64,000 nt of DNA from an uncultured delta proteobacterium (GTDB lineage: Bacteria > Myxococcota_A > Polyangia > Fen-1088). Shown in pieces: positions 6,423-24,429 of the stretch. The notes beneath the pieces were generated by a model that saw only the letters and a list, made by a program, of their open reading frames with translations, made no database searches and was not told the DNA's origin. Location of the stretch: the NCBI GenBank assembly GCA_963767925.1, contig CAVYGB010000002.1, forward strand, positions 2,016,001-2,080,000. Direction: 5' to 3'. The stretch's first letter is position 1; the number at the start of each line of letters is the position of its first letter. Both the position numbers and the translations under genes were made by a program.

Positions 6423-6653
6423 ATGAAGGTCAAGGACTTCAACAAGCAGCGCCTGCTCGAGGCGCTTGGCCTCGAGGAGCGTTCCAGCGGTTTTTCCGTC
6501 CTGATGGGCACCCTGGGCACCTTCGCCCTGGGCGCGCTGGTCGGGGCGAGCGTGGGCTTGCTGTCGGCCCCCCGGCCGGGCCGCGAGCTGCGCGGCAAGC
6601 TGAAGAAACAGCTCGACCGTCAGATCGCGGACATCGAGCAGCGTATAAGCTGA
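6423..6653 (+). CDS. YtxH-like small membrane protein
   Basis: FALGALVGASVGLLSAPRPGRELR motif; AGGAGGA RBS. Confidence 0.8.
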   Translation: MKVKDFNKQRLLEALGLEERSSGFSVLMGTLGTFALGALVGASVGLLSAPRPGRELRGKLKKQLDRQIADIEQRIS

Positions 6654-6711
6654 TCCGTGGCGGAAGGGTGGGGGGCTGCGGCCCCCTCTCCATTCGCTCC
6701 GTTCCCCGACC

Positions 6712-7113
6712 ATGGACAAGCAGCTCGTCAAGACGCCCGAGAAGACTCCGGCCCTGCGAGAGGATCTCGCCCGCCTGAGCACCCCCCAGCTCATCGCCCG
6801 GCTGGCCCAGGATGCGCAGAGCCTGGTCAAGGCCGAGATCGAGCTCGGCAAGGGCGAGCTGCGCCAGACCCTGGCCGGCGCCCTGGCCGCCGTCCGCCGG
6901 ATGGCCGCCGGTGTCTTCCTCGCCCTGCTGGCGGTCGGCCTGTTCGTGACCGGCACGGTGCTCGCGCTGGCTCAGGTGATGCCCGCCTGGGCGGCGGCCT
7001 TCAGCGTCGGCGGCGCCCTGACCCTGGCCAGCCTGATCGCGTTTTCAATGGCCCGCGCCGCCCGCCGCAAGCCCCCGAGCAACGGCGTCCCCTCCGACCC
7101 GCCGCCGCCCTGA
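6712..7113 (+). CDS. Phage-holin-like (superfamily III / YqjE-like) membrane protein
   Basis: LVKAEIELGKGEL helix followed by two TM segments; commonly paired with YtxH-like genes. Confidence 0.75.
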   Translation: MDKQLVKTPEKTPALREDLARLSTPQLIARLAQDAQSLVKAEIELGKGELRQTLAGALAAVRRMAAGVFLALLAVGLFVTGTVLALAQVMPAWAAAFSVGGALTLASLIAFSMARAARRKPPSNGVPSDPPPP

Positions 7114-7132
7114 GGCGGGTGACGGACGTCCC

Positions 7133-8956
7133 CTACGGGCGCACGGCGCGCTCGAGCTGCAGCAGGGTGGGGCCGAGCTCCGTGCGGAGCAGCTCGTCGA
7201 GGTGCCAGAAGTGGAGCTGGCGGTCCTGCTCGTAGAACCAGCCGAGCACGAGGACGAGCAGATCGATGCAGGTGCGCGGGCAGCGCCAGCGCTGGCTGGC
7301 CTGCACCGGTCCGCAGGCCGCGTCGGCCTCGTCGAGGAAGCGGGTCAGCGCCTCGGTGAGGGCGATCATGCCCAGCATCACCCGCTGGGCCAGGTTGACC
7401 GCCAGGGTGGGCGGGTCGGCGGGGCTGAGCGGGGGCCGGGTCATGCGGGTCTCGAACACCGGCAAAAACTCGATCGCGATCGCCTCCAGGGCCACCGAGA
7501 CCGCCTCGGCCAGCCCGTCCCGCGAGACCCCGGCGGCGGCCAGCTCGGCGGTGAGGCGGCGGGCCTCCGAGGGGGCGTCGAGCAGCCGGCGGTAGGGGCG
7601 GGTGGCGGCCCGCAGCAGGCTCTGGGTGTCGCGCAGGCTGAGGTCGGTCTTGAGGGGGGCCTCGGGCAGCAGCGAGGAGGTGGGCAGGGGCGGGTCGGCG
7701 GGGCCCCGGCGGCGCACGTATTTGTGCTCGACCAGGTCGGCCAGCGCCTCGGCCACCACGACGTTGAGGGCCAGGCGGATCCGGCCGCGCAGGTCGTTGC
7801 GCACGACCCGGCCGAGGATGTCCCGGTCGATCGTCACCCCCTCGTTCCCGGGGACGAAGGCGTCGCGCAGCACCGGGCCCGGGTCGCTGCCGGCGTCGGC
7901 GAAGCGGTTGCCGCTGGCCGGGGTGACCGGGTCGCGCAGCTCGATCAGGCGGGCGTAGGACCACTCGAAGTCGCACAGCGATTCTTCCCAGCCGTGGCCC
8001 CACAGGTCGTGTACGAGGAACAGCTCCGCCTTCTGGGCGGGGATGAGGGTGACCATGGTGGCGAGCGTCTCGGCCACCACCCGCGGGCGCACCCCCTCGA
8101 ACCCGCGCAGGGAGGCCGCCGCCCGGGTCAGCTCGTCGAGCAGGGCGCTGTCGACCTCCTCCCGCTCGTACAGGCCGAACCCGGGGAAGCGCAGGCTCTC
8201 CAACGAGCCCTGCTGCTTCTCCACCCGGGCCAGGAACTGGGTGATGGCGGTGCGCTCGGCCTCGGGGCGGGCCGGGAAATCCGGGCGCAGCAAGGTGCTG
8301 CCCTCGAAGGGCAGGCCGAAGATCAGCGCCGTGCTGGTCAGCGTGAGGGTGACGTCGCCCGCGCGCAGGGGCAGGGGTCCGAACAGGCGGCGGAACAGGG
8401 CCAGCACCTGGGCGGCGAGCTGGGGCGAGCCGGCGGCGGCGTCCACCTCCCGGTGCAGCCGGGCGGTCAGCGTCTGCTTGAGGCGGAGGTTGGACGTCCG
8501 GCTCTGCAGGGCGCTCTCCAGGCGGGACAGCTCGGGCGAGTCCCAGCCGAAGCAGCGCTGGAGGGCGTTGCGCAGGGCCCCCCGCTCGGCCAGATCGCCC
8601 CGCAGGTCGGGCTCGAACCCGCGCAGGGTGCCGCTGCTGTGCCCGTCGACCAGGACGCGCCCGCCCGCCTGGGCGAAGTCGGGCCACAGCAGCGCCGCCT
8701 CGGTGAACCAGCGGATGTGCTTGTCGCTGCCGGGGGTCAAGGTCGGTGGGCTCTGGCCGGCCAGGGGGGCGGCCGCCCGCAACAGGCCGTCGACGATGGC
8801 GCCGGCCTGCCCCCGCCGGACCGAGTCGGGCGGGGCGGGCCGATCGAGCAGGGCCTCCAGCTCGGCCAGCCCGTCGAGCAGCGGGCGCCAGGTGCCGGGG
8901 ACCTCCCGCTCGAAGAGGGCCGCGTCGGTCAGCGGATCGGGCGCCTTGCCGCTCAC
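7133..8956 (-). CDS. Unknown 607-aa soluble protein with possible metal-binding HDLWGH...E motif
   Basis: GTG start overlaps the ABC ATPase stop (GTGA); [13 protein letters not shown] and downstream [10 protein letters not shown]. Confidence 0.7.
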
Positions 8957-9828
8957 ACGTCCACCGTGAGGGTGCCCCGGCCGTGCTGCCCGGTGGCCCC
9001 CCGGATGAGGGAGATGATCTTCTGCTCGAGCTGGCTGCATTCGGCCGAGCGCAGCCAGCTATCGGGCCGGGGCTTGGGGGCCGTCACCGGCATGTCGGCG
9101 ACGATGCCGGCCGGTCGGGTGGACAGCACGAGGATGCGGTCGGCCACCCGCAGGGCCTCGGTCACGTCGTGGGTCACGAACAGGGCCAGGCAGGGGAACC
9201 GCTGCCAGAGCTGGATGACGAGGTCCTGCATCTCGAGCCGGGTCTGGGGATCGAGGGCGGAGAACGGCTCGTCGAGGCACAGGATGCTCGGCCGCAGCAC
9301 CAGCCGCGCGGCCAGCGCTACCCGCTGCTGCATGCCCCCCGAGAGCTGGCGCGGGTACATGCGGGCCGAGGCGCTCAGCCCCACCGCGGCCAGCATCTCC
9401 TCGGCCCGCTCGCGCCGCTGGGCGGGCGGCACCCGCGCGCCCCACAGCTCCGAGCGGAAGGGGAGCAACACGTTCTCCTGCACGTCGAGCCAGGCCTTCA
9501 GCACCGGGCGCTGGAACACCGTGAGGACGTCGTCCTGGGGGCCCTGCACGACCCGGCCCTTGATCTTGACCTGCCCCTCGGTCGGCATCGGCGTGCGCCG
9601 ATCGTACATCCCGGAGATGGTGCGCAGGATGGTCGACTTGCCGCAGCCCGAGGGCCCCAGGATGCAGAGGGTGGCCGGGCGGTCGACGCCGAAGGTGATG
9701 TCGACAAGCACGCGGTTGGCCTGGCCGTCGTCGCCGGTGTAGTCCTGGCTGACGTGCTCGACCGCGAGCAGCCGTTCGCCGCTGTCGGCGGCGGGAGGGG
9801 TGCGGGGGGCGGGGGGGGTGGCCGACAT
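8953..9828 (-). CDS. ABC transporter ATP-binding protein (NitT/TauT type)
   Basis: Walker [31 protein letters not shown]. Confidence 0.95.
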
Positions 9829-9834
9829 GGTCGA

Positions 9835-10614
<780 letters not shown>

Positions 10615-10634
10615 GCCCCCCTCCTCTGCGCCCG

Positions 10635-12206
<1,572 letters not shown>

Positions 12207-12267
12207 GGTGACCTCACGCTGCATGATACCATTGATGGCAGGCCCGGTCGCCGCGCGCGGACCGCCC

Positions 12268-13095
12268 ATGGACGAGGTTAAAGAGGAAAAGAAGCGCAAG
12301 CCGTTCAGCCTGCTCGAGCGGGCCTTCTTCAACCAGTACAACTACATCCTGCTCGGCAGCGCCGCCCTCTACGCCCTGGCCACCCAGTCGTTCTTGCCGG
12401 TCATCGTGGGCCTGGGGGCCGAGACCCTCTGGCTGGTGCTGGGGGCCGACAGCGGCCCCTTCCGCCGCTGGGCCGATCGCCAGGAGGAGAAGGAAGCGCT
12501 CGAGCGCCTGGAGAAGGACATGGCCATCTTGCTGGCCGGTCTGCACGAGCACCACGCCGAACGGTTCCTCGTGCTGCGCCAGATGGTGGCCGAGATCGGC
12601 CGCCTGGCGGTCGAGAACAAGGGCATCGAGACCATGCTCCTGCGCGACGAGATGGCCAAGCTGGGCCAGCTCCTGCTGTCGTTCCTGCGCATGGCCACCA
12701 TGAGCCAGCGGCTGCAGGCCTACCTCGACGAGAGCCTGGGCAGCGACATCGAGCGCGACATCGCCCGGGCCCAGCGGGCCCTGCGCAGCGAGGGGGATCC
12801 CCGGGTGCAGGCCAGCTACAAGCAAGCTCTGGCCCTGGCCCAGCGCCGGCTCAAGCAGCACGACCAGATCGAAAACGCCCGCAAGGCCATCGTCGTGCAG
12901 ATGGACACCCTGGAGAAGGCCCTCGGCTTCCTCAAGTCGCACATCATGGGCATCGGCTCGCGCGACGAGCTGGCCAAGGAGCTCGACGGCCTGGTGCTCG
13001 GCGTCTCCTCGGTGGCCGAGCTGGAGGCCGCGGCCGACGAGGTCCTCACCGACGTGCGCATCACCGGCCAGGCCGCCCAGGCCGTCCGGCGCTGA
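12268..13095 (+). CDS. Membrane-anchored coiled-coil protein (XpaC-like or divergent ESCRT-III-like)
   Basis: Two N-terminal TM segments then ~200 aa of helical/heptad sequence; divergent from the ABC-OmpA operon with a 61-bp gap. Confidence 0.75.
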
Positions 13096-13111
13096 GCGCG
13101 CCCCGCCCGGG

Positions 13112-13474
13112 TCAGGGGGCGGCCAGCAGGTCGGCCAGGGCGGTCTCCAGGCCGTGCAGGGTGAAGGGCTTCTCGATGAAGCGGCGGCGGGCCGGATCCG
13201 ACTGCCCGGGCCGGTACTCCTCCCGCCCGTAGCCGGACATGAAGAGGATGTACAGGCCGGAGCGGGCCGCCTCCAGGTCGTCGGCCAGGTCGAGGCCGCT
13301 GGCCGCGCCGAGCTGCAGATCGAGCACGACGAGGGCGATGGCTGGGTCGGCCGTCAGGGCCTGCCTGGCCCCCTCCGCGTCCCGGGCCTGGGCGGTGCTG
13401 TGGCCCAGGATCTCCAGGAACTGAGCCGTCAGCCGCCGTAGCTCGTCGTGATCGTCGACCACCAGCGCGCGCAC
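13112..13474 (-). CDS. Single-domain response regulator
   Basis: LVVDD, VVLDL, FMSGY, KPF. Confidence 0.9.
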   Translation of the reverse strand: MRALVVDDHDELRRLTAQFLEILGHSTAQARDAEGARQALTADPAIALVVLDLQLGAASGLDLADDLEAARSGLYILFMSGYGREEYRPGQSDPARRRFIEKPFTLHGLETALADLLAAP

Positions 13475-13480
13475 GGGCTG

Positions 13481-14143
13481 CTAGGGCTCGACCAGGTGGT
13501 TGCGGATGGCGTAGCGGACCAGGTCGGGGATCGAGCGGACCGCCAGCTTCCGCATCAGATTCGAGCGGTGGCTCTCCGCGGTCTTGCCGCTGATCCCCAG
13601 GGTGGCGGCCACCTCCTTGGTGCTGTGGCCCTCGGCCAGGAGCTGCAGCACCTCGCGCTCGCGGGAGGTCAGGGTCTGGGTGGTGGCAGGGGCCAGCTCC
13701 TCGGGCTGGGGACCGCTGTGCAGGTACCCGCGCAGGACCAGCTCGGCCACCCGGGCCGAGAAGAAGGGGCGCCCCTGCTGCAGGCCCTCGACCGCCGACA
13801 CGAGGTCCTTGGCGGCGTCGCTCTTGAGGATGAAGCCGCGGGCCCCCGCCGCCAGCACCTCGCGCACCAGGTCCTCCGAGTCGCGCGCCGACAGGATCAG
13901 CACGGCGGTGCGGGGGGCCTCGTGCAGGATCCGGCGCGTCGCCTCGAGGCCGTTGAGCTCGGGCATGGCCAGATCCATGATGACGATGTCCGGGTGCAGC
14001 TCCAGCGTGCGCTCCACCGCTTCGCGCCCGTTCGACACGTCGGCGACGACGGTCCAGTCCGTCCCCTGCTCGAGCAGCGAACGCAGGCCGGCCCGCACGA
14101 TCTCGTGATCATCTGCGACGAGGATCCTCACGCTCGAAACCAC
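13481..14143 (-). CDS. NarL/LuxR-family response regulator
   Basis: ADDHEIVR, IMDLAMPELNG, LTSREREVLQLLAEG HTH. Confidence 0.95.
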   Translation of the reverse strand: MVSSVRILVADDHEIVRAGLRSLLEQGTDWTVVADVSNGREAVERTLELHPDIVIMDLAMPELNGLEATRRILHEAPRTAVLILSARDSEDLVREVLAAGARGFILKSDAAKDLVSAVEGLQQGRPFFSARVAELVLRGYLHSGPQPEELAPATTQTLTSREREVLQLLAEGHSTKEVAATLGISGKTAESHRSNLMRKLAVRSIPDLVRYAIRNHLVEP

Positions 14144-14180
14144 GGCACCCCCTCGAGAGCCAGCCGCTGATTGTAAGGGA

Positions 14181-14789
14181 TCATGGGCGCCCGGGAAACC
14201 TGGCCTCGATCGAGGTGCCGCCCGGGCTGCGCAAGATTCGCAGGTTCCCGCCGGCTGCCCGGGCCCGCTGGCGCAGGCCCAGGGTGGCCAGGTCCAGGGC
14301 GGCGCCCCGGCGCATGCGCCCCTGCAGGGTCACCTGCACCCCCGCCCCGGCGATCGAGGTGACCCGCACGCTCACCGAGGCCTCGGTGGCGAAGGCCCCG
14401 GCGAGCGCCTCCTGTACAAGCCGGAACACAACCGCCTGCACCTCGGGGTCGATCGGCGCGGTTGTCTCGACGGCCACCCGCAAGCGGATGGCCCCCTCGC
14501 GCGCCGCCAGCCAGCCCAGGGCCGAGCCGAGACCGTTGCCGCCCGACCCAAGCGGGTACAGGCTGTGCGACAGGTCGCCGACCTCGCGGCAGGAGGCCGC
14601 CGCCAGCTCCTGGGCCTTGGTCAGGGCGGTCCGGGCCGCCGCCGTCAGCCCGGTGGCGCTGCGCTCGACGAGGGTGAGGTTCATCGAGACCGCGGCCATG
14701 GTCTGGGCCGTCGAGTCGTGCAGCAGCCGGGCCAGCCGCCGCCGCTCCTCGTCGCCCGCCCGCTGCAGCTCCGCGCACAGCCGCGCCAT
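14181..14789 (-). CDS. Sensorless HisKA_3 protein with degenerate HATPase (pseudokinase/phosphotransferase)
   Basis: EERRRLARLLHDSTAQ H-box; N-box reads QEALAGA and there is no DxGxG; start may be TTG 14837. Confidence 0.75.
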   Translation of the reverse strand: MARLCAELQRAGDEERRRLARLLHDSTAQTMAAVSMNLTLVERSATGLTAAARTALTKAQELAAASCREVGDLSHSLYPLGSGGNGLGSALGWLAAREGAIRLRVAVETTAPIDPEVQAVVFRLVQEALAGAFATEASVSVRVTSIAGAGVQVTLQGRMRRGAALDLATLGLRQRARAAGGNLRILRSPGGTSIEARFPGRP

Positions 14790-14865
14790 GAGGGCCGCCG
14801 CCCCCTTGCCCGCTCGAGCGTCCTTCCGCGCCGCCAACCTTGCGATACCGACCCCCGCCCCGCGA

Positions 14866-15465
14866 TCAGCGCTTCCGGGGCCCCGAGCCGGGGCCCTCGC
14901 TGACGTAGCCGAAGAACATGCGCGCCCCCTGCAGGCGCGACTCCTCCACCACACACTGTGCGCGCACCGACTCCAGATCCTTCTGCAGACCCTCGATAGC
15001 GGCCCGCTGCTCGTCGATCTGGCGCTGCAGCTCGTTGATCGTCGCCTGCCGTTCACCCACCGCCTTCTCGCTGTCGGCCCGCTTGGCGTCGGCCACCGCC
15101 CGCACCACGTCGATCTTGCGGCCGGAGTCGGTGATGACGTCGGCCGGCGACTTGCCGATGGCGCCCAGGAAGGCCCTGGCGGCGGCCAGCTTGGACGTGT
15201 CGGGCAGGTTCGAGTCCAGGCCCCCCAGGAACCGCTCGAGCGCCTCGACCTCGTCGGTGTTGGGGATGCCGGCCTGATCGTAGAGGGTCTGGAAGTCGAT
15301 CGACCCGGTCAGCCCGGCCGGCGCGGTCCCCTCGGGCAGGGCCACCACCGGCTCGGGCGCCTCGGGCAGCGCATATTTTTCCAGGTCCGCGAGCACCTGA
15401 TCGGCGGTCCGGCCTGGCGTGTCCGCCACGATGAACACCGACTTGAGCTTCTGGCCCCAGGACAT
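14866..15465 (-). CDS. Hypothetical protein with N-terminal amphipathic helix and C-terminal coiled coil
   Basis: MSWGQKLKSVFIV start; ~60-aa heptad C-terminus (INELQRQIDEQRAAIEGLQKDLE). Confidence 0.8.
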   Translation of the reverse strand: MSWGQKLKSVFIVADTPGRTADQVLADLEKYALPEAPEPVVALPEGTAPAGLTGSIDFQTLYDQAGIPNTDEVEALERFLGGLDSNLPDTSKLAAARAFLGAIGKSPADVITDSGRKIDVVRAVADAKRADSEKAVGERQATINELQRQIDEQRAAIEGLQKDLESVRAQCVVEESRLQGARMFFGYVSEGPGSGPRKR

Positions 15466-15517
15466 GCAGCAATCCTCCGCCGGTCCATTATACGCGGGCC
15501 GGCGGAGGGTCGGTCGA

Positions 15518-16636
15518 TCAAGCCACGTCGATGTCGAGGCCCAGCGCCACCCGGCCGACCAGCCGGTTGGCCTGCGGCTCCTGCAGCGGGTGGTAGCGCA
15601 CCCCCTGGGCGTCGCGGAACAGCCGCTCGAGCCCGGCCGAGCGAAAGAAGCTCCCGCCGCCCGCCACCGCCAGGGCCCGGTCCACCGTGGCGAGGACCGC
15701 CCGGGCGAAGACCGTGCGCCGGGACATCACGGCGGCGGTGGCGGCCGGTCCGGGCTTGTCGCTCTTGACCAGGTCGACCAGGCCGGCGTGGGCGAGCTGG
15801 GCGACGAGCAGCTCGTTTTCGAGCTCACCGACCGCCGGGGCGGTGAGGGGATCGTTCTTCTTGCGGGCGGCGAGCTGCAGGGCCACCTCGCGGGCCGCCT
15901 CCGCCACCCCCAGGTAGGCGGCGAAGAAGACCGGGAAGGCCACCAGCGAGACGGTGTGCATGAAGGGGTGCCACTTGCCGGCTGGCCGGCGCACGCCCCC
16001 CATGGCCGCGTCGGGGAGGAAGACCCCGTCGAGCTCGACGTCGTGCGAGCCGCTGCCGCGCATGCCCAGCACCCGCCAGGTGTCGAGGATCTTCACTCCC
16101 TGGGCGTCGAGCGGGACCGGAAAGTGGATCACGGTGGGCCCGTTCTGGGGGTCGTCGTACACCCCGGTGGTCATCAGCAGGTTGCCCTGGCCGACGCCGC
16201 TGGCGAAGATCTTGCGGCCGGTCAGGCGGAAGCCCCCCTCCACCTTCTCCAGCTTGCCCGAGCCGGTCAGCCAGTCCGCCCCGCCGGTGCTGATGAGGAC
16301 CAGCTTCTCGGCCGCCACCCGCTTGAGCAGGCCCTCGGGGGCCTTGTTGCCCGAGCGCCACAGGTAGGCCAGCGTCGCCACCAGGTGGCTGTGCATCGAG
16401 AAGGCCAGCGCGGTCGAGCTGCACGACCGGGCCATGGTCCGGACGAAGGCGCACAGCTCGGGGTGGCTGACGTCGCCGCCCCCCAGCTCGCCCGGTACGC
16501 CGGCGCCGAAGGCGCCTCGCTCCTTGAGGAGCGCGTAGTTCTCCTCGACGAAGCGGTCGTCGGCGTCGTGCTGGGCGGCGCGCTCCGCGAAACGCGGCCC
16601 CAGCTCCTGCATCACGGCTCGCCAGTCGAATCCCAT
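15518..16636 (-). CDS. Acyl-CoA dehydrogenase-fold flavoprotein (flavin-dependent monooxygenase-like)
   Basis: VPGELGG, LTGRKIFASG, GMRGSGSHDV, LERLFRDA. Confidence 0.9.
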   Translation of the reverse strand: MGFDWRAVMQELGPRFAERAAQHDADDRFVEENYALLKERGAFGAGVPGELGGGDVSHPELCAFVRTMARSCSSTALAFSMHSHLVATLAYLWRSGNKAPEGLLKRVAAEKLVLISTGGADWLTGSGKLEKVEGGFRLTGRKIFASGVGQGNLLMTTGVYDDPQNGPTVIHFPVPLDAQGVKILDTWRVLGMRGSGSHDVELDGVFLPDAAMGGVRRPAGKWHPFMHTVSLVAFPVFFAAYLGVAEAAREVALQLAARKKNDPLTAPAVGELENELLVAQLAHAGLVDLVKSDKPGPAATAAVMSRRTVFARAVLATVDRALAVAGGGSFFRSAGLERLFRDAQGVRYHPLQEPQANRLVGRVALGLDIDVA

Positions 16637-16870
16637 GGGCTCCTCCTCTTGCTAGTGGACTGCGCAGCGGCAGCATGCTCCCACGTGTGGAGCGGCATGC
16701 TGCCACTTTTGCGCCCGGCCGGGGCGTCAGGAAACGCCGGGGTGTGGGTGATTTCCTCTCCGCGGCCCGGGGTGTCCCCGCTGTAAGGCGCTGTGTTCTG
16801 GCCCTGGCGCCCGACTTCCAGTTGTGCACCGGCCTGGGATCTTGCGTACGATAAAGGCCGGACGGGGTGC

Positions 16871-17275
16871 ATGACGACGAAGTTGCGGGAGCAGGGAGCG
16901 CGGGTTCTGGTGGTGGACGATAGCGAGGAGATGAGGGCGGCCCTTCGCCGCATGCTCGCCCCCATCGCCTCCGAGGTGTTCGAGGCCCGCAACGGGGTCG
17001 AGCTGATGGCGGCGGTGGCGGGCGAGACGCCCTTCGACCTCATCGTCACCGACGTGCGCATGCCCTGGATGAACGGGCTGGGGGCGGCGACGACAATCCG
17101 GAGGGCCGGGATCGACACGCCCCTCATCATCATCACCGGCTACTCCGACGCGGAGACCGGCCGGCGGATCGAGACGCTGCCGCGGGCGTCCCTGCTGCGC
17201 AAACCGTTCACGGGCGAGGAGCTGATCGCCGCCGCCCGGGACATGCTGGCCGCCGCTGTGCCGGCGGCGTCTTAG
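16871..17275 (+). CDS. Single-domain response regulator
   Basis: LVVDD, VTDVRMP, ITGY, KPF. Confidence 0.9.
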   Translation: MTTKLREQGARVLVVDDSEEMRAALRRMLAPIASEVFEARNGVELMAAVAGETPFDLIVTDVRMPWMNGLGAATTIRRAGIDTPLIIITGYSDAETGRRIETLPRASLLRKPFTGEELIAAARDMLAAAVPAAS

Positions 17276-17279
17276 CGGT

Positions 17280-17654
17280 TCACTCGAGTTGCAGTCCGCA
17301 GTCGGAGCAGGCGCCCGAGACGAGCGGGGCGGCGGTGCCGCAGGCCGGGCAGGGGGCGTGTTCCCCCTCCGGCTCCGCCGCTGCCCGCCGCTCGCCCTCG
17401 AAGGTCCCCTCGCGCTCGAGGAGCTGCCACCAGCGCTCGGAGAGCAGCTTGGCCACCCGGGGGACGTCCTCCCTGGCCACCAGGACCTGGATCTTGGGGG
17501 CACAGGCGCAACCGTTCTTGCCGCAGCAGTCGGCCCGGGCCAGCAGCGCTTCGACCTCGATCTCCTCGCAGGCCGCCGCGATCTCCTTGGCGTCGGGCAG
17601 CGCCGCCGTGATGCAGGAGACCATCTGCGGTTCCTGGTCAGCGTCGTTTTCCAC
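17280..17654 (-). CDS. Small Cys-rich protein with C-terminal zinc ribbon
   Basis: CCGKNGCAC cluster and CPACG...CSDCG. Confidence 0.75.
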   Translation of the reverse strand: MENDADQEPQMVSCITAALPDAKEIAAACEEIEVEALLARADCCGKNGCACAPKIQVLVAREDVPRVAKLLSERWWQLLEREGTFEGERRAAAEPEGEHAPCPACGTAAPLVSGACSDCGLQLE

Positions 17655-17727
17655 GGCCGGCAGTCTACCAGCCAGGCCACTGGATCTTGGTGACGACCGT
17701 CGTATGGTCCCTTGCAAGGAGCCTGAC

Positions 17728-18123
17728 ATGAGCGGCCTGCAACAAACGGTGATGGTGGTCGACGACGACGAGGACATCCGCGAGAGCCTCACGCTGGTGC
17801 TCGGTCAGCGCGGGTACCAGGTCATCACCGCCTCGGACGGTGCGGAGGCGCTCACCCTCCTGCGCAACGCCACCCGAGAGCCCTGCCTCATCTTGCTCGA
17901 CCTGATGATGCCCGGCATGAACGGGTTCCAGCTTCACCAGGCCCTGACCGCCGACCCGGTCCTGTGCACCGTCCCGGTGGTGGCCATCACCGGCGCCGGC
18001 CCCAGCGTGCAGCGCCGCTCCCTCGACCTCAACCTCGAGTACCTGCCAAAGCCCTTCGACTTCGCCGCCCTCCTGGACGTGGTGCGCCGCTTTTGCGCCG
18101 GCGCCGTGATCACCCCGAGCTGA
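17728..18123 (+). CDS. Single-domain response regulator
   Basis: MVVDDD, LLDLMMP, KPF; AAGGAG RBS. Confidence 0.9.
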   Translation: MSGLQQTVMVVDDDEDIRESLTLVLGQRGYQVITASDGAEALTLLRNATREPCLILLDLMMPGMNGFQLHQALTADPVLCTVPVVAITGAGPSVQRRSLDLNLEYLPKPFDFAALLDVVRRFCAGAVITPS

Positions 18124-18219
18124 CCTGCTCGTTTGCGGGGTAGAGGGCGAGGGAAGGGGCAGGGGCGGTCGCCACCCCGGGCACCCGAACAGGCCGGGGC
18201 GCTAGACTCGTCGTCGAGC

Positions 18220-19089
18220 ATGGCGCTGGCGGAGCAAACCACCCGGGTGGTCCGGGGCCGATCCGAGGGGGGCTCCTGGGAGCTGATCTTCGGGCGCTGC
18301 CACCCCGCCCTGGCCCCCTACGTCCGCCAATATTGCGGCTACCGCGAGCGCACGCCCGCCCCGGTGCGCCGGCTGGAGATGCCGGCCGCCCAGGTGGTGA
18401 TGATCCTCGACTTCGGCCCCACCCTGCGGATGCTCGACCCCGTCGACGGGCGGCTGATCGTCCAGCACCCGGGTGGGTTCCTGGCCGGCCTGGACGACGG
18501 CTTCACCCTCACCGAATCGACCGGCGAGATGGACGGGATCCAGGTCAACTTCACCCCCATCGGCGCGCGCCTGCTGGTGGGGCGCCCCATGCACGAGGTG
18601 GCCCGCCAGGTGATCAGCCTGCCCGACGCCTTCGGGGCCGACGGCCGCCACCTGAGCGAGGCGATCGGCGAGACCCGGGGCTGGGCGGCCCGCTTCCGCC
18701 GGCTCGATGACCTGCTGCTGGCGCGGCTGCTCGGTGCCCAGGCCCTGCCGGGCTGGGTGGCGACGGCCTGGGATCGCATCGAGCGCAGCGGCGGCGCCAT
18801 GGACGTCGCCCGCCTGGTCAAGGAGATGGGCTACAGCCGCAAGCACCTGGCGGCGGTGTTCCGCGAGCACGTGGGCATGCCGCCCAAGGCGGTGGCCCGC
18901 CTGGTGCGGTTCCAGCGGGCGCTCGAGGCCCTGCGGGGCGGGGCGCGCGGCGACCTGGCCCGGCTCGCGCTGGAGCTGGGCTATTTCGACCAGGCCCATT
19001 TCACCCGGGAGTTCCGGGGCTTCTCCGGGATGACGCCGGCGGAGTGCCGCCGGCGGTGGCGCCCCGGATCGCTCGGGATCGCCGGGTAG
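18220..19089 (+). CDS. AraC-family transcriptional regulator
   Basis: C-terminal double HTH, GYFDQAHFTREFRGFSGMTP. Confidence 0.92.
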   Translation: MALAEQTTRVVRGRSEGGSWELIFGRCHPALAPYVRQYCGYRERTPAPVRRLEMPAAQVVMILDFGPTLRMLDPVDGRLIVQHPGGFLAGLDDGFTLTESTGEMDGIQVNFTPIGARLLVGRPMHEVARQVISLPDAFGADGRHLSEAIGETRGWAARFRRLDDLLLARLLGAQALPGWVATAWDRIERSGGAMDVARLVKEMGYSRKHLAAVFREHVGMPPKAVARLVRFQRALEALRGGARGDLARLALELGYFDQAHFTREFRGFSGMTPAECRRRWRPGSLGIAG

Positions 19090-19173
19090 GGCCCGGGCCC
19101 CGGGGTAACAAACGTACAAGCGGTGGGCGGCGGGCCCACCTACCCTGGGTGGGCAACCAAGAGGAGGACCACC

Positions 19174-19626
19174 ATGAGCGACAAGGTTTCGACAGGCGCC
19201 GGCGGCTACATCATGCCCTACCTGAGCTGCAAGGGCGCCGCGCAGGCGATCGAGTTTTACCTGCGGGCCTTCGGGGCCCGCGAGGAGTACCGCCTGACCA
19301 TGGACGACGGGCGGATCGGCCACGCCGAGCTGCTGATCGGGGCGGCCCGCTTCGGCGTGGCCGAGGAGTTCCCCGAGCTGGGGTTCAAGAGCCCCCTCAG
19401 CTACGGCGGCTCCACGGTGACCCTGCACCTCTATGTCGAGGACGTGGACGCCTTCTTCGCCCGGGCCCGGGAGGCCCAGGCCAAGGTGCTCGAGGCGCCC
19501 AGGGACGAGTTCTACGGCGACCGGGTGTGCCGGCTGGGCGACCCTTCCGGCCACGTGTGGATGATCGCCACCAAGAAGGAGGAGGTCTCGCCCGAGGAGA
19601 TGCGCCGTCGCATGCGGGGGGCGTGA
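19174..19626 (+). CDS. VOC family protein (PhnB-like)
   Basis: PYLS..GAAQAIEFYLRAFGA, FYGDR, DPSGHVW. Confidence 0.92.
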   Translation: MSDKVSTGAGGYIMPYLSCKGAAQAIEFYLRAFGAREEYRLTMDDGRIGHAELLIGAARFGVAEEFPELGFKSPLSYGGSTVTLHLYVEDVDAFFARAREAQAKVLEAPRDEFYGDRVCRLGDPSGHVWMIATKKEEVSPEEMRRRMRGA

Positions 19627-19718
19627 GGGGTTGCGCCACCGCACACGCGCCGACACCGGCGCCGTCGGGGCGGCCGATTGCTTTTGAGGCAGGTGGGCAA
19701 AGCGCCTAAAATGTCGCC

Positions 19719-20429
19719 ATGTCCGAAGGCGGCGGTTTCTTCAAGCGTCTGAACAACCTGTTCCGCGGCTTTCTCAGCCTCTGGATCTCCGACGTCGAGA
19801 AGGAGCACCCGGAGATCGCCTACGAAAACGCCATCAACGCCATGCTGGAGAAGTTCGCCCGGCTCAAGCGGGCGACCGCCGCCATCATCCGCCGGCGCGA
19901 CGAGATCCAGGAGCGGTTCGGCAGCCAGTCGAGCGAGCTGGCCCAGGTGAGCGCCGACCTCGACGTGGCGGTGCAGACCGCCCGGGACGACCTGGCCCTC
20001 ATCCTGATCCAGAAGAAGAACATCCTCGAAAAGGAAGTGGCCGAGCTGAAGGTGGAGCTCGAGACCGCGGCCCGCGACGCCGACGAGGCCAAGGCGGCCC
20101 TCATCCAGGTGCAGGCCGAGATCAAGAAGCTCAAGGCCGAGAAGGACAACATGCTGGCCAAGATGGAGAGCGCCAAGGCCCGCGTGCGCATCCAGGAGCA
20201 GCTCGACGGGCTCTCGGTGGACGCGGAGGTCAAGGCCCTGGAGAACGTGCGCGGCCACATCAAGAACACCATCGCCCAGGCCAACCTCGGCAAGGAGCTG
20301 GCCGACACCTCGCTCGACGCGAAGCTGCGCCAGCTCCGCTCGCAAACCGGCGAGGTGACCGCGCGCAACCAGCTCGACGACCTCAAGGCCAAGCTCGCCG
20401 CCAAGAAGGCCGCGCAGAAGACGATGTGA
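19719..20429 (+). CDS. pspA: PspA/IM30 (ESCRT-III superfamily) protein
   Basis: 236 aa all-helical; amphipathic [11 protein letters not shown] start, conserved E..P, A...R.DLA motif, LDAKLRQL...LDDLKAKL C-terminus. Confidence 0.9.
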
Positions 20430-20442
20430 CGGTCGGGGGGAG

Positions 20443-22359
20443 GTGCGCGTGGCGGTGAGCGGCGACAAGGGCGGGGCCCGGCCCCCGGCGGGCAAACATC
20501 CGGGCTGGGCGGAAGAGCTGCGGCGCCGCTACCTGCGGGGCGAGGCCAGCCAGTTCATCCTGCACGGCAACGTGTTCGACGTTGTCGAGTGGGCGGGGGA
20601 GCTGCTGCCGCTCGGCGAATATCTCACCGAACACCTGCTGGGCGAAAACAAGGACACCATCGTCGTGTTCAACCTCGCCACCGGGGGTCGCACCGTGCGG
20701 CGCAAGGTGGACCTGGGCGGGCTGGAGGACCTGCTCGGGCAGCGCCAGCCGGCCAAGTTCCTGCCCGCCATGGAACGGCTGCTGAAGACCGGTCAGCGGG
20801 TGGCGCTCATCATCGAATACGCCGAGACGGTGGCGCCGGCGGCCGACCCGGCGCTCATGCAGGACGACGACCGCACGGCGGTCGTGACCTTGCACCGCTG
20901 GTCGATGTCGCCGGAGATCGAGGCGGCCGACAACGTCGTGCTGCTGCTGGCCGAGACCCTGTCGGAGCTTCACCCCAAGCTGGTCTCCAACCCCAAGATC
21001 GCCACCGTGCGCCTGCCGATGCCCGACGAGGAGACGCGCCGGCGGGTGGTGGCGGTCTGCCAGCCGGAGGCCGATCCGGCCTGGCGCGATCGGCTGGCCG
21101 CGATAACCGCCGGGCTGCGGGCGGTGCAGATGCAGGCCATCTTGCAGCCGGCCCCCGGGGCCCAGGACCAGGCCAGCGAGGAGGAGCGGGTGCGGTTCCT
21201 CGAGGGGCTGCTGGCCCCGGCGGGCGCGGCCCGGCCCGCCGATCTGGAGGTGCGGGCCCGCAAGCTGGCGGGGCTGACCCGGGGCATGTCGAGCGAGGAG
21301 GTGCGCACGCTTATCGCGCCCGAGGCCGGCCCCGACCCGGAGGCGGGGGTGGAGGAGGCCCGGCGCCGGCAGCGCGACGAGATCGACCGGCTGATCGCCC
21401 ACCGCAAGCGCGAGATCATCGAGCGGGAGTGTTACGGGCTGATCGAGTTCGTCGATCCGGGGCACGACTTCCGGGTGGTGGGGGGCATCGAGGCGGTCAA
21501 GGCCGAGCTGCAGCGGATCGCCCGCAACATCCGGGAGGGCAACGTGGCCCGGGTGCCGATGGGGCTGCTGTTCACCGGGCCCATGGGGGCGGGCAAGACC
21601 TTCGTGGCCGAGGCGTTCGCCAAGGAGTCGGGGCTCACCACCATCAAGCTGAAGAACTTCCGCAGCAAGTGGGTGGGGGCCACCGAGGCCAACCTCGAGC
21701 GGATCTTGCAGGTGGTGCAGGCCATCGGGCAGGTGCTGGTCATCATCGACGAGGGGGACCGGGCCTTCGGCAACCAGACCGACGGCGACGGGGACGGGGG
21801 GACCTCCTCGCGGGTCATCGGGCGGCTCAAGGAGTTCATGTCCGACACCAGCAACCGGGGGCGGGTGCTGTTCATCCTGATGACCAACCGCCCCGACAAG
21901 CTGGACGTCGACATCAAGCGGGCCGGCCGGCTCGACCGGAAGATCCCCCTGCTCTACGCCCAGAGCGCCGAGGAGGTGGAGGCGGTGATCCTGGCCCAGC
22001 TCCGCAAGCACCGCTTCGAAAACGGCCTCTCCTTCCCGGCCGATCGGGCGGCCCTGTCGGCCCGGATGCTGGGCCTGTCGAACGCCGACTTCGAGGCCAT
22101 CGTGCTGCTGGCGGGCGAGCTGGCGGCGGCCGCCGGCCCCGAGCAGCGCACGCCCCGGCTCGACCGGGGCCTGCTCGAGCAGGCCATCGCCGACTACCTG
22201 CCCTCGCGCGACACGAAGATGCTCGAATACATGGAGCTGCTCGCGGTGTTCGAGGCGTCCAACCGCAAGATGTTACCCGCCAAGTACCAGACCATGAGCG
22301 CCGAGGAGCTGCAGGCCCGCCTGGACCTGCTGCGCCTCGAGTGCGGCAACCGGAGGTGA
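20443..22359 (+). CDS. AAA+ ATPase with degenerate N-terminal and intact C-terminal AAA module
   Basis: GPMGAGKT Walker A, SKWVG pore loop, IIDEGD Walker [21 protein letters not shown]-half ([16 protein letters not shown]) lacks a P-loop. Confidence 0.9.
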
Positions 22360-22362
22360 CCG

Positions 22363-22821
22363 ATGGAGTTTTTCCCTGAGCTCGAGGTGAGCGCCACCCA
22401 GGCCGAGGCGATCGCGCGGGGGCTGTACGCAGTGGCCCTCGTCGACGGCCTGCACGAGCGCGAGCTGGCCCTCATCTCCGACTTCTTCGGCAACACGGTC
22501 GAGGACGGGCGCCCCGAGCACGTGGGCGCCGCCGCCCTGGCCCGCCTGGGCCCCCTCGAGCCGGCCGCCCTGGCGGCGGTGCTGGCCGGTCAGGCCCACC
22601 GCGAGCTGTTCCTGAAGACCGCCTACCTGCTGGCCTGGGCCGACGGCCAGGTCTCGCCCGGCGAACGCACCACCATCGACGCCTTCGCCGCCGCCCTCGC
22701 CCTCGGCGCCGACACCGGCAAGCGCCTGGAGTCGGAGGTGAAGGACTACCTCCTGCGCCCCTTCGCCAGCCTGATCAACGTGGAAGGCGCCGCCGCCATC
22801 GCCAAGAAGCTGGGGCTGTAG
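22363..22821 (+). CDS. TerB-like protein (two internal TerB-like repeats)
   Basis: AVALVDGLHERELALI and LLAWADGQVSPGERTTI; starts 3 bp after the AAA gene stop. Confidence 0.7.
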   Translation: MEFFPELEVSATQAEAIARGLYAVALVDGLHERELALISDFFGNTVEDGRPEHVGAAALARLGPLEPAALAAVLAGQAHRELFLKTAYLLAWADGQVSPGERTTIDAFAAALALGADTGKRLESEVKDYLLRPFASLINVEGAAAIAKKLGL

Positions 22822-22824
22822 CCG

Positions 22825-23721
22825 TCAAGCCGCCAGCCCCAGCGGGCGGGTGCTGGCGGCGTCGAGCAGGTAGTCGCGGAAGGCGGTGACCTTGCGGGGC
22901 AGGTGCTGGGCCCGGGAGTGGACCAGGGCCAGGCGGCCGGCGGGGCCGGCCAGGCGGGGCAAGACGCGCACCAGCTCGCCGCGCGCCAGGTCGCGCTGGG
23001 CGAGGAAAGCGGGCAGGGGGCCGAGGCCGGCGCCCGCCCGCAGGGCGTTGCGCACGAACAGGAAGTCGTCGGCCACGATGTTGCCGACCGCCTCGAGCCC
23101 GAACGCCTTCACCGGCCACTCCCTGCGGAACTGCACCCAGTCGTGGGCCCGGGCCTCCTCGGGGCTGCGGGGCGTCCCCCGGCGGGCCAGGTAGGCGGGC
23201 GCGGCGAAGAGCTGCGTCTCCACCATCGCCAGCTTGCGGGTGACGAGCGACGAGTCGGGCATGCGCGCCGCCCCGAAGGCCCGGATCGCCAGATCGAACC
23301 CCTCGGCCACGATGTCGACCCGGCGGTTGGTCAGCCGCACGTCCACCCGCACGCCGGGATAGCGGCGCACGAAGCCTGGCACCAGCTCGGCCAGGAAGAC
23401 CGCGCCCAGGTCGTGGGGCGCCGTGATGCGCAGGTCGCCCGAGGGCAGCTCCTCCTGCTCGGGCAAGGTGCCGAGCGCCTCGCGCAGCGATCGCAGCAGG
23501 GGCGCGCTCCGCTCGTAGACGGCCGTCCCGGCCGTCGACAGCGCCACCCGGCGGGTGGTCCGGTGCAGGAGCTGGGCGCCCACCGCCGCCTCCAGGCGGG
23601 CGATACCCCGGCTCACCGAGGACTTCGGCATGGCGAGCCGGCTGGCGGCGGCCGAGAAGCTGCCGGCGTCGGCCACCGCCACGAAGAGCCCGACGAGGTC
23701 GAGGGGGATTGTTCCACTCAT
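22825..23721 (-). CDS. LysR-family transcriptional regulator
   Basis: FVAVADAGSFSAAA...LLHRTTRRV; EGFDLAIR. Confidence 0.95.
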   Translation of the reverse strand: MSGTIPLDLVGLFVAVADAGSFSAAASRLAMPKSSVSRGIARLEAAVGAQLLHRTTRRVALSTAGTAVYERSAPLLRSLREALGTLPEQEELPSGDLRITAPHDLGAVFLAELVPGFVRRYPGVRVDVRLTNRRVDIVAEGFDLAIRAFGAARMPDSSLVTRKLAMVETQLFAAPAYLARRGTPRSPEEARAHDWVQFRREWPVKAFGLEAVGNIVADDFLFVRNALRAGAGLGPLPAFLAQRDLARGELVRVLPRLAGPAGRLALVHSRAQHLPRKVTAFRDYLLDAASTRPLGLAA

Positions 23722-23766
23722 GGAACAGTATCTTGCTCGGAGGGGGGCTGGTTCTCCAGCGGGAAC
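23710..23766. promoter_or_regulatory. Putative LysR operator pair
   Basis: Palindrome TGTTCCACTCATGGAACA (23710-23727) over the lysR start and GTTCTCCAGCGGGAAC (23751-23766) in the divergent gap. Confidence 0.55.
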
Positions 23767-23798
23767 ACGGCATAGTGAGTCTCGAAAGGAACGCGACC

Positions 23799-24419: not shown

Positions 24420-24429
24420 CCGAGGTGCC

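Follow-up and report, generated by a model that had tools for sequence, protein, structure and literature searches.

A conserved bacterial gene set encoding PspA, a AAA ATPase and an OmpA-fused ABC importer, found in dispersed form in an uncultured delta proteobacterium

The window analysed here, a 64,000-nucleotide stretch of a contig from an uncultured delta proteobacterium, encodes a PspA protein, a AAA ATPase and an ABC importer within 15.7 kb, on both strands and interspersed with genes for regulators and enzymes. Third-position GC content lies between 0.89 and 0.97 in the reading frames of all the genes named below, and their strands were confirmed. On the forward strand, pspA (19719-20429), the gene for a AAA ATPase built of two halves (20443-22359) and that for a small TerB-like protein (22363-22821) form a tight operon (19719-22821), the AAA gene starting 13 nt past the pspA stop codon and the TerB-like gene 3 nt past the AAA stop. 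Directly before the pspA start codon lies a promoter-like site (19684-19712, forward strand), a consensus-level match that is the sole one to a sigma-70-type consensus between 6500 and 23500, where shuffled sequences lead one to expect 0.2. A terminator-like hairpin can be read in the sequence at 19661-19678, 3' of the upstream glyoxalase gene. The importer trio occupies 12206-8953 on the reverse strand and a 6.6 kb gap containing ten unrelated genes separates it from the pspA operon. Two further genes encode a membrane-anchored helical protein, here called TMcc (12268-13095, forward strand), and a 199-amino acid coiled-coil protein of an unnamed family, cc199 (14866-15465, reverse strand). 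The named genes and the pspA operon are present as set out in an earlier preliminary description of this DNA, the TerB match being a weak one.

PspA matches the Pfam family PF04012 (PspA_IM30) across residues 7-224 with 64.4 bits (cutoff 33.9), and a profile built from 34 orthologues aligns with solved Vipp1/PspA chains along almost its whole length (E = 1.2e-14). By these comparisons the protein is assigned to a very conserved subfamily of PspA/IM30 and, with it, to the ESCRT-III superfamily in which the literature places PspA and Vipp1. Residues 5-24 have the character of an amphipathic N-terminal helix (hydrophobic moment 0.49). Orthologues from records of three phylum labels show a mean column identity of 71% and the subfamily conserves a C-terminal K-T-M end, as expected of a protein whose partners are fixed.

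The C-terminal half of the AAA ATPase contains a classical AAA domain (PF00004, E = 4.9e-25, residues 375-502) with a single Walker A motif (377), pore loop (407, K-W-V-G) and Walker B motif (430), features of substrate-threading classical AAA unfoldases. Of 30 aligned members, 29 retain Walker A, 29 Walker B and 27 a K-[WYF]-x-G pore loop. No nucleotide-binding motifs were found in the N-terminal ~340 residues, which are probably a degenerate AAA domain; in an hhalign comparison the two halves align in register (E = 0.032). The closest PDB chains, within the best 60 of 285 matches, are the D2 domains of VAT, CDC48 and p97, with no Vps4 or CdvC chain among those 60, and the protein scores 68.8 bits against a CDC48 model versus 38.8 bits for CdvC. 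It also lacks a MIT domain. The enzyme had been likened to Vps4; the missing MIT domain and the CDC48-D2-like AAA domain led us to reject orthology, and because of these features and the database scores the analogy with Vps4 is one of gene context. The TerB-like protein reaches 21.3 bits against PF05099, below the cutoff of 24.4. It is an accessory component, chiefly of Myxococcota- or Gammaproteobacteria-labelled loci: homologues directly follow the AAA gene in 23 of the 80 loci described below and, where at least 1.5 kb of downstream sequence is available, in 15/24 loci labelled Myxococcota or delta, 5/5 labelled Gammaproteobacteria and 1/29 labelled Acidobacteriota.

All three importer genes lie on the reverse strand. 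The binding protein (10635-12206) combines an NMT1/SsuA-type domain (PF09084) with a C-terminal OmpA-type peptidoglycan-binding domain (PF00691; PDB matches up to E = 2.7e-18), and its N-terminus bears a hydrophobic segment (residues 4-26), a signal or membrane anchor. The permease (9835 to about 10638, exact start uncertain) matches PF00528 (BPD_transp_1, E = 2.2e-18) and the ATPase (8953-9828) matches PF00005 (ABC_tran, E = 1e-27). Their closest NCBIfam models, SaoP, TauC and SsuC for the permease (all far under cutoff) and SaoA and the taurine and nitrate types for the ATPase, fall short of every equivalog cutoff, and no substrate can be assigned to the importer from them.

The gene that follows (7133-8956, reverse strand, GC3 0.95) had been described as encoding a 635-amino acid protein belonging to the system, a view that our data contradict. 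A GTG at 8956 shares the letters GTGA with the stop codon of the ATPase gene, whilst the alternative ATG at 9040 would create an 88-nt overlap; the former gives the better coordinates, a product of 607 amino acids and a predicted translational coupling to the ATPase gene. The protein has no match in Pfam, NCBIfam, PADLOC or Atlas, those of its 28 homologues that carry names are from Myxococcota, and the gene is found at 0/80 of the AAA-relative loci. It is a lineage-specific addition that lies outside the conserved set.

TMcc and cc199 were modelled with AF2. The TMcc model (pLDDT 78) begins with two helices, 23-39 and 43-58, and continues with six others, and segment 41-60 alone exceeds a Kyte-Doolittle cutoff of 1.6; we describe the protein as two N-terminal hydrophobic helices and a predicted cytoplasmic helical domain of ~215 residues. 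None of its 65 homologues has a Pfam domain. A protein-language-model search placed clusters of the Rv2743c family nearest among named neighbours (score 0.88, a lead only), and Rv2743c was not seen among the 25 most frequent of the 82 Pfam families matched by members of the TMcc alignment at E ≤ 1. In cc199 (model pLDDT 81), a short hydrophobic motif at the N-terminus is followed by a disordered linker, a small domain of helices and a single long helix, modelled with 83 residues (107-189). The amphipathic helix formerly proposed for cc199 was not borne out, its N-terminus having a helical hydrophobic moment of 0.29 and residues 1-17 appearing in the model as coil of pLDDT under 50. Fold and PDB searches with cc199 returned no match, and neither protein matched an ESCRT-III structure or gave any ESCRT-III, PspA or Snf7 signal in fold, Pfam or PDB profile searches; a profile-profile comparison with the PspA alignment, run for TMcc, was likewise negative. 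TMcc occupies the position annotated 'SIG+TM+Snf7' in Table S3 of Ravi et al. (2024; row OGG56892.1), who call the anchor protein a divergent Snf7, an assignment that we did not reproduce. The roles given to TMcc and cc199 below are guesses from gene position.

The AAA gene has 589 or more relatives among species-representative genomes, of which we compared the best 80, a sample of best-scoring loci rather than a random one, in which related genomes are not independent events. In one-pass phmmer searches the system genes recur in 23-50 of the 80 loci, with very strong PspA matches (E = 2e-43 to 5e-100) and homologues of the ABC ATPase in 50, of the permease in 46 and of the binding protein in 42, both of whose domains lie in one ORF in 36 of those 42. 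Iterated searches found TMcc in 52 loci, mostly directly 5' of the AAA gene, and cc199 in 37, mostly directly 5' of pspA. As an internal control, nine other window genes, located between those of the system or next to them, were tabulated: six occur in 0/80 loci and three in 1-2/80. Thirty-seven loci are well flanked (7.5 kb or more of upstream sequence, 1.5 kb or more downstream) and contain PspA, ABC ATPase and TMcc in 31 cases each, OmpA-binding protein and permease in 30 each, cc199 in 27 and TerB-like in 13; in four the AAA relative stands alone, with none of the partner genes. This clustering exceeds chance, since system genes recur and other window genes do not. Directly observed, it spans records labelled Acidobacteriota, Myxococcota and Gammaproteobacteria, and the gene set is real and widely conserved in bacteria.

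Most relatives are compact single-strand operons. The commonest layout, cc199-PspA-binding protein-permease-ATPase-TMcc-AAA on one strand, is found at 12 loci and at three more with TerB-like added, and the set is kept in other orders at Gammaproteobacteria-, Kofleriaceae- and Haliangium-labelled loci. In relatives such as L001 (a Haliangium sp. MAG) and L036, the eight conserved components are packed into ~8.5 kb with nothing interposed, so the window looks like a dispersed copy interrupted by genes for regulators and enzymes, as had been suggested. Six intervening genes that were tabulated (histidine kinase, LuxR-type response regulator, acyl-CoA-dehydrogenase-like, zinc-ribbon, AraC and glyoxalase) each occur in no more than 2/80 loci. 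The window by itself, with its gap, its different strands and its unrelated intervening genes, might be read as a nutrient importer that happens to neighbour a Psp-type stress operon. That reading is highly unlikely to be right: the two units adjoin or interleave in 30 of 37 well-flanked loci, across three phylum labels and in several orders, and the genes that divide them here do not recur elsewhere. A lack of co-occurrence in other genomes had been named beforehand as what would refute the idea of one system, and the ABC-OmpA and coiled-coil genes do cluster with pspA-AAA; the idea is supported for seven of the eight genes then proposed and not for the 607-amino acid protein.

A phage-shock protein beside a AAA ATPase could also suggest anti-phage defence, and PADLOC gives two weak matches, IetA for the AAA domain (E = 1.5e-9) and ZorB for the OmpA domain (E = 2.2e-9). 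These are limited to generic AAA and OmpA domains, however, with none for PspA, TMcc, cc199 or the 607-amino acid protein, and genes so highly conserved and syntenic across phyla are unlike typical defence islands; we consider a defensive function very improbable.

The preliminary description stated, correctly, that surveys had noted the neighbourhood, and at the same time proposed it as an undescribed system, which it is not because it is already in print. Ravi et al. (2024; mSystems 9:e00847-23) list it with the example OGG56892.1 from Candidatus Handelsmanbacteria, in the order X(s)-PspA-PBPB+OmpA-TM(s)-ABC ATPase-TM+Snf7-inactive AAA+AAA (Table S3). Gene set and order equal those of our compact operons, and these authors likewise read the neighbourhood as ATP-dependent remodelling of membranes tied to solute transport. 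The window copy differs from that example in its dispersal over both strands and in adding a TerB-like gene after the AAA ATPase, 'TerB' not being found in the main text of that paper, and the 607-amino acid gene after the ABC ATPase. We found no experimental work on the gene set in the literature.

Several known systems offer comparisons. As in ESCRT-III/Vps4 (CdvB/CdvC), the gene for an ESCRT-III-superfamily polymer protein adjoins that for a classical AAA ATPase with a pore loop of the threading type, and accessory coiled-coil proteins bound to the membrane are encoded as well; in contrast to that system, the polymer protein is of PspA rather than Snf7 type, the ATPase has a motif-less N-terminal domain in place of MIT and a AAA domain nearer the D2 of CDC48/VAT, and a wall-anchored ABC importer is included. 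A PspA-family effector, membrane-protein partners and a presumed envelope-stress role are shared with E. coli PspF-PspABC and B. subtilis LiaIH, although here the AAA protein, unlike PspF, belongs to the classical clade of ATPases and has no DNA-binding domain, and among the genes scanned from 4381 to 27068 none encodes PspF (NtrC-type AAA with HTH), PspB, PspC or a LiaI-type protein. The M. tuberculosis ClgR-PspA-PspM(Rv2743c)-PspN system also encodes a membrane-protein partner beside PspA, but ClgR and PspN are absent from the window locus.

Archaeal 'Meth_adaptin' ESCRT loci resemble the present one in including a periplasmic-type ABC substrate-binding protein; theirs is ProX where the bacterial protein is NMT1/SsuA-like and fused to OmpA, and here a full importer is encoded (Makarova et al. 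2024, mBio). Ligand sorting into vesicles has been suggested for the archaeal loci (Makarova et al. 2024, mBio), and the membership of PspA/Vipp1 in the ESCRT-III superfamily, from the literature and our PDB match, would suit a system that buds membrane vesicles, with the binding protein selecting a solute or marking the site. We think this improbable. Permease and ATPase are of importer type (BPD_transp_1; nearest TauC/SsuC and TauB), which indicates cytoplasmic uptake rather than packaging, an OmpA-type wall anchor would retain the binding protein rather than release it, and there was no evidence of vesicle genes.

Less easily set aside, though still rather unlikely in our judgement, is the possibility that the importer, with its unusual binding protein tethered to membrane and wall, is what the other proteins serve. 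In that case PspA, TMcc, cc199 and the AAA ATPase would make up a device for assembly, quality control or extraction of this trans-envelope transporter and not a general membrane remodeller. Extraction of membrane proteins is an established activity of CDC48- and FtsH-like AAA proteins, the AAA domain comes closest to CDC48/VAT D2, and in the commonest layout the importer genes sit mid-operon, between pspA and TMcc-AAA. Ravi et al. (2024) suggest that PspA-chaperone contexts aid membrane-complex assembly. Against this, PspA-AAA-TerB-like occurs with no importer within 10 kb in a Tahibacter isolate (L065), the shorter loci L012 and L016 hold PspA-AAA(-TerB-like) without one, and a lone PspA-AAA pair is reported in Clostridium (Ravi et al. 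2024), so the pair is not strictly dependent on the importer.

The reading we put forward, to which we give an even chance, is that of a conserved envelope system of seven to eight genes, present in the window as a dispersed copy, whose ATP-driven PspA polymer cycle is coupled to an envelope-tethered importer; each physical interaction in it, the ATPase substrate, the solute and the physiological role we infer. Vps4 recycles ESCRT-III in archaea and eukaryotes, and a parallel role may be played here by a different, CDC48-D2-like ATPase. PspA, polymer-forming and membrane-binding, would assemble at the cytoplasmic face of the inner membrane, where TMcc and cc199 could act as membrane receptor, nucleator or adaptor, and the single active pore-loop-bearing AAA ring would extract PspA (or the anchor protein) from the polymer and recycle it. 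The importer genes lie within the same operon in most relatives, and the binding protein may be fixed at its N-terminus to the inner membrane and at its C-terminus to peptidoglycan. Such tethering would tie the polymer cycle to a fixed envelope site and to small-solute uptake, and the system as a whole may serve membrane maintenance under envelope stress.

The window has a G+C content of ~72%, and its genes were picked by third-position GC and then scanned with Pfam and NCBIfam. On the plus strand, the pspA gene (19719–20429) is followed by the gene for the AAA ATPase (20443–22359; PF00004 at residues 375–502), which begins 13 nt past pspA, and by a gene for a 152 amino acid TerB-like protein (22363–22821), which begins 3 nt past the ATPase gene. 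The sole sigma-70-like consensus between 6500 and 23500 lies at 19684–19712, immediately 5' of pspA, and a terminator-like hairpin is found 3' of the upstream glyoxalase gene and ahead of the promoter-like site (both within 19661–19719, plus strand). These consensus-level matches fit the idea that the three genes form their own transcription unit. The end of the –10 element is 7 nt from the pspA ATG, so transcription could give a leaderless pspA mRNA. Downstream of the cluster, at 22825–27068, are genes for a LysR regulator, a YceI-like protein, a LigB-type ring-opening dioxygenase and a cytochrome P450, which do not recur in the related loci described below.

The remaining genes of interest lie several kilobases away. 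An ABC importer is encoded on the minus strand, with a 523 amino acid binding protein (12206–10635) that combines a hydrophobic segment (residues 4–26), an NMT1/SsuA-type domain and a C-terminal OmpA domain, a permease (9835–~10638; BPD_transp_1, PF00528) and an ABC ATPase (9828–8953; PF00005). Next comes a gene on the same strand (7133–8956) for a 607 amino acid protein, its GTG start at 8956 overlapping the ABC ATPase stop (GTGA). Divergent from the binding protein gene, and 61 nt from it, is the plus-strand gene (12268–13095) for TMcc, a helical protein of 275 amino acids with two transmembrane segments. The gene for cc199, a 199 amino acid coiled-coil protein, lies at 14866–15465 on the minus strand. 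Directly 3' of it, on the same strand (13112–14860), is a block encoding a HisKA_3 kinase, a LuxR-type response regulator and a single-domain response regulator, and these two-component genes may provide local control of the cc199 gene in the lineage of the window. The kinase gene (14181–~14860, minus strand) is the real gene behind a wrong-frame ORF at 14128–14778; this ORF and another at 6657–7113 (plus strand) were rejected, their Arg/Pro/Gly-rich translations being artefacts of high G+C. Seven genes separate cc199 from pspA, including those for an acyl-CoA-dehydrogenase-like protein, two response regulators, a zinc-ribbon protein, an AraC regulator and a glyoxalase. The zinc-ribbon protein (17280–17792, minus strand) resembles the 'DG (seleno)protein' model NF049953 (E 6.5e-15) at 55.5 bits, below the cutoff of 130.

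The preliminary description of this DNA presented these genes as a candidate for an undescribed system, but a prediction of this neighbourhood has already been published (Ravi et al. 2024, PMC11237479). According to the passages of that study cited here, bacterial PspA is occasionally encoded beside a protein with two AAA domains, the N-terminal copy being inactive; the pair is also found with a membrane-anchored divergent Snf7 and other coiled-coil proteins; and in longer operons these are joined by genes for an ABC ATPase, a permease and a PBPB+OmpA binding protein. The authors proposed ATP-dependent membrane remodelling tied to solute transport. Full-text literature searches, with most subscription journals outside their reach, found no experimental study of the PspA–AAA–importer set among the papers they listed. 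The window locus thus adds a new and dispersed example to a neighbourhood known from in silico work. Set against the published examples, pspA in the window directly adjoins the AAA gene across its 13-nt gap.

To survey linkage, 30 full-length relatives of the AAA ATPase (31–100% identity) were aligned and the resulting profile was used to scan species-representative genomes with 10-kb flanks. At least 599 stretches matched, at least 589 of them encoding an AAA relative, and the best 80 (41–69% identity) were kept; the genome of the window is not among them. Labels on these loci include Myxococcota (Haliangium, Kofleriaceae, Polyangiaceae), Acidobacteriota (Pyrinomonadaceae, Thermoanaerobaculia, Vicinamibacteria, Holophagales), Lysobacterales/Tahibacter and a few others. 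Six-frame translations of the loci were then searched with the window proteins (phmmer, E≤1e-4), the resulting recurrence counts covering proteins other than the window's three single-domain response regulators. The AAA ATPase was matched at all 80 loci, the ABC ATPase at 50, PspA at 48, the permease at 46, TMcc at 44, the OmpA-fused binding protein at 42 (with the binding and OmpA parts in a single ORF at 36 of these), and the TerB-like protein and cc199 at 23 each. After four jackhmmer rounds the counts were 37 loci for cc199 and 52 for TMcc, with PspA (48) and the TerB-like protein (23) unchanged.

Other window proteins behaved quite differently. The LuxR-type regulator was matched at two loci, LysR and AraC at one each, and the kinase, the acyl-CoA-dehydrogenase-like protein, the zinc-ribbon protein, the glyoxalase, YceI and the 607 amino acid protein at none of the 80. 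The regulators and enzymes that separate the modules here are not found recurrently at other loci, which fits a cluster split by inserted regulator cassettes, as had been suggested. The 607 amino acid protein was still absent from all 80 loci after four jackhmmer rounds. It has no family in Pfam, NCBIfam or PADLOC and no usable match in the Atlas, and its 28 homologues, where named, are all from Myxococcota; there are hints that in close relatives these homologues are co-located with relatives of TMcc or the AAA ATPase. The proposal that eight genes constitute one system therefore holds for seven of them, which belong to one conserved set, whilst the 607 amino acid protein falls outside it. 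In an all-against-all clustering of ORFs, the two largest clusters each drew members from all 80 loci and mixed known components with antisense shadow ORFs, so that this clustering did not separate the families inside them. The sole other recurrent family outside these merged clusters, a Ser/Thr kinase with TPR repeats, occurs at 12 loci in varying positions and was rejected as a further component.

Because contig ends cut many of the loci, we counted separately the 37 in which the ATPase gene is flanked by 7.5 kb or more on its upstream side and 1.5 kb or more on its downstream side, dropping the other 43. Within this subset PspA, the ABC ATPase and TMcc are each present at 31 loci, the binding protein and permease at 30, cc199 at 27 and the TerB-like protein at 13, with no partner at all at four (L027, L037, L060 and L080). 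By label, each of the six core partners is found in 15–16 of 16 Acidobacteriota loci, in 8–9 of 13 Myxococcota/delta loci and in 2–3 of three gammaproteobacterial loci. The TerB-like protein, counted by record label at loci with at least 1.5 kb downstream, is present in 15 of 24 from Myxococcota, all five gammaproteobacterial loci and 1 of 29 from Acidobacteriota, and is a lineage-restricted eighth member of the set. The most distant AAA relatives kept (41–43% identity; L070, L073, L075, L076, L079 and L080, with L076 labelled as a Klebsiella pneumoniae MAG) have no partner genes nearby, and linkage thus seems confined to a closer subfamily.

Gene order varies but the set is retained. The commonest arrangement, seen on one strand at 12 loci, is cc199–PspA–binding protein–permease–ABC ATPase–TMcc–AAA, with the TerB-like gene added at three further loci, and an identical order appears in the Handelsmanbacteria row of Table S3 of Ravi et al. 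Gammaproteobacterial loci have the order cc199–binding protein–permease–ABC ATPase–TMcc–PspA–AAA–TerB-like. In three Kofleriaceae loci, TMcc and cc199 are on the opposite strand, whilst in the Haliangium locus L001 a cc199–binding protein–permease–ABC ATPase–TMcc group is divergent from PspA–AAA–TerB-like, the whole occupying ~8.5 kb with no other gene. The 80 loci are the best-scoring relatives and were not chosen at random, and related genomes have ancestry in common, so that the counts record conservation with repeated rearrangement and not independent events. Chance proximity of the genes is among the less likely explanations of the locus.

The PspA protein belongs to the PspA/IM30/Vipp1 family by its PF04012 match (64.4 bits against a cutoff of 33.9, residues 7–224), and a profile of 34 orthologues aligns with solved Vipp1/PspA chains (positions 4–226 against 1–218, E 1.2e-14). 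With only 39 bits against the 243 required by the NCBIfam equivalog for E. coli-type PspA, it represents a distinct subfamily, and no PspF, PspB or PspC gene was found among the 26 genes scanned at 4381–27068. The subfamily is unusually conserved, with 71% mean column identity across three phylum labels. Residues 5–24, a predicted amphipathic N-terminal helix with a helical hydrophobic moment of 0.49, are near-invariant in the 34 sequences. The C-terminal end is a conserved K-T-M or a close variant (K-T-L, K-Q-M), again across three phylum labels (20418–20429 in the window), and this tail could be a recognition tag.

Residues 1–352 of the AAA ATPase give no MIT or other Pfam match at E≤10, so the protein offers no MIT partner for the K-T-M tail. 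Its C-terminal half holds the only Walker A and Walker B motifs (each conserved in 29 of the 30 sequences aligned) and, in 27 of 30, a K-[WYF]-x-G pore loop; neither Walker motif is found in the N-terminal half of any of the 30. PDB profile searches place the C-terminal AAA domain closest to the D2 domains of VAT, CDC48 and p97. The best 60 of 285 PDB matches comprise VAT, CDC48/p97, AFG2, NVL, Rix7, NSF-type proteins and FtsH, with no Vps4 among these 60. With the NCBIfam CdvC model, whose cutoff is 650, the protein reaches 38.8 bits, and its scores with CDC48, PAN and FtsH are higher. We considered the ATPase as a Vps4/CdvC orthologue and rejected this: it lacks an MIT domain, misses the CdvC cutoff and scores higher with CDC48. 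A 2025 review (PMC7619361) states, in the part cited here, that a Vps4-like ATPase appears absent from bacteria. Aligning the two halves of the protein with hhalign gives a weak match (E 0.032, probability 1.6%) that keeps register across 160 columns: 'LIIEYAE' falls on the Walker B strand, and the sensor region and next strand–helix elements also line up. This agrees with, without proving, the 'inactive AAA + AAA' architecture of Ravi et al. The product of 22363–22821, for its part, reaches 21.3 bits against the Pfam gathering score of 24.4 for TerB, with residues 75–117 alone aligned, and by its sequence is TerB-like and no more.

It had been suggested that both coiled-coil proteins be compared with PspA/Snf7, and we sought a link to ESCRT-III in fold and profile searches. 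The AlphaFold2 model of TMcc (35 sequences, pLDDT 78) has helices at 23–39 and 43–58 followed by six more; basic residues before the first and after the second hydrophobic helix suggest that both ends are cytoplasmic. The window protein has no Pfam match at E≤10. Across 35 members there are weak coiled-coil matches alone (DUF7365 in 11 of 35), and Snf7 is absent from the top 25 of the 82 Pfam families matched. PDB profile searches return coiled-coil matches at chance level only; the best Foldseek match of the model in the PDB is a BAR domain at E 0.08, with none at E≤0.001; and a comparison with the PspA alignment by hhalign gives E 0.1. In an Atlas language-model search the nearest clusters are unnamed and come from Acidobacteriota and Myxococcota, with the family of the PspA partner Rv2743c nearby (score 0.88), which is a lead only. 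None of the fold, Pfam, PDB-profile or PspA-hhalign tests thus links TMcc to ESCRT-III. TMcc does have a membrane anchor, and its operon position matches the 'TM+Snf7' slot of the Table S3 row of Ravi et al. cited here, but the Snf7/ESCRT-III likeness attributed to that anchor was not found in our searches.

For cc199 the model (pLDDT 81) comprises a disordered N-terminal part, a small helical domain (58–102) and one helix (107–189), and conserved in the family are a short hydrophobic motif at the N-terminus and, close to the C-terminus, an F-F-G. PDB profile searches give chance-level coiled-coil matches only, and the fold search yields no match, its best E being 0.64. Pfam matches across 24 members are weak and include Mod_r in seven (best E 0.0011). 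The Mod_r model presumably represents the Vps37 C-terminal region of ESCRT-I, and these matches are probably coiled-coil noise.

The importer has the make-up of the neighbourhood of Ravi et al. (PF00005, PF00528, and PF09084 with PF00691 in one protein) and is likely to be of the NitT/TauT family type. Its substrate is harder to predict: the substrate-specific NCBIfam equivalogs (SaoA/SaoP, TauB/TauC, SsuC, NtrCD and the SsuA family) all score far under their cutoffs (for example, 169 against 360 and 45.5 against 163.5), no solved binding protein matches the binding domain in a PDB profile search, and an Rfam scan of 6500–23500 finds no RNA family and hence no riboswitch pointing to a solute. 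Makarova et al., in the part cited here, note that certain ESCRT loci of archaea include a ProX binding protein. The main rival explanation of the locus is that the module serves the importer itself, which we consider unlikely.

The best-supported reading, to which we give a roughly even chance, is instead a PspA polymer cycle at the inner membrane. From the observed identities, motifs and linkage we infer all contacts, the substrate of the ATPase, the solute and the physiology: the AAA ATPase would drive the polymer cycle, the part of membrane receptor or adaptor would fall to TMcc and cc199, and the binding protein of the importer would bridge membrane and peptidoglycan. A more ambitious version, which we offer tentatively and think somewhat doubtful, makes the two-domain AAA protein the missing bacterial counterpart of Vps4. 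It would read the K-T-M tail of PspA, thread PspA via its K-W-V-G pore and drive assembly and disassembly of an ESCRT-III polymer, which would be nucleated by a hairpin membrane protein from a new family and positioned by a binding protein bridging inner membrane and peptidoglycan, the whole forming a trans-envelope machine. If true, this would contradict the statement in the cited part of the review (PMC7619361) that bacteria lack a Vps4-like regulator of ESCRT-III. Vesicle sorting is less likely, as is phage defence, for which PADLOC gives matches to AAA (IetA, TRIP13) and OmpA (ZorB) domains, but these are generic, and PspA, TMcc, cc199 and the 607 amino acid protein have no PADLOC match.

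The value of the window is limited in that the neighbourhood has been published as a comparative-genomics observation and the copy here is scattered. Relative to the passages of Ravi et al. cited here, what is new are the counts of linkage and of the several gene orders, cc199 as a defined family usually beside pspA, the TerB-like protein as a lineage-restricted member, the invariant PspA tail and the negative ESCRT-III results for TMcc and cc199. The locus is real and ordinary-looking yet scientifically useful. The gene set is present in cultured strains, such as a Lysobacteraceae isolate (L074), which has every member, and Tahibacter harae (L065), so that the question of polymer disassembly is directly testable, and a concrete, highly conserved PspA–ATPase pair with fixed partners bears on how PspA/Vipp1 polymers are disassembled and reused.
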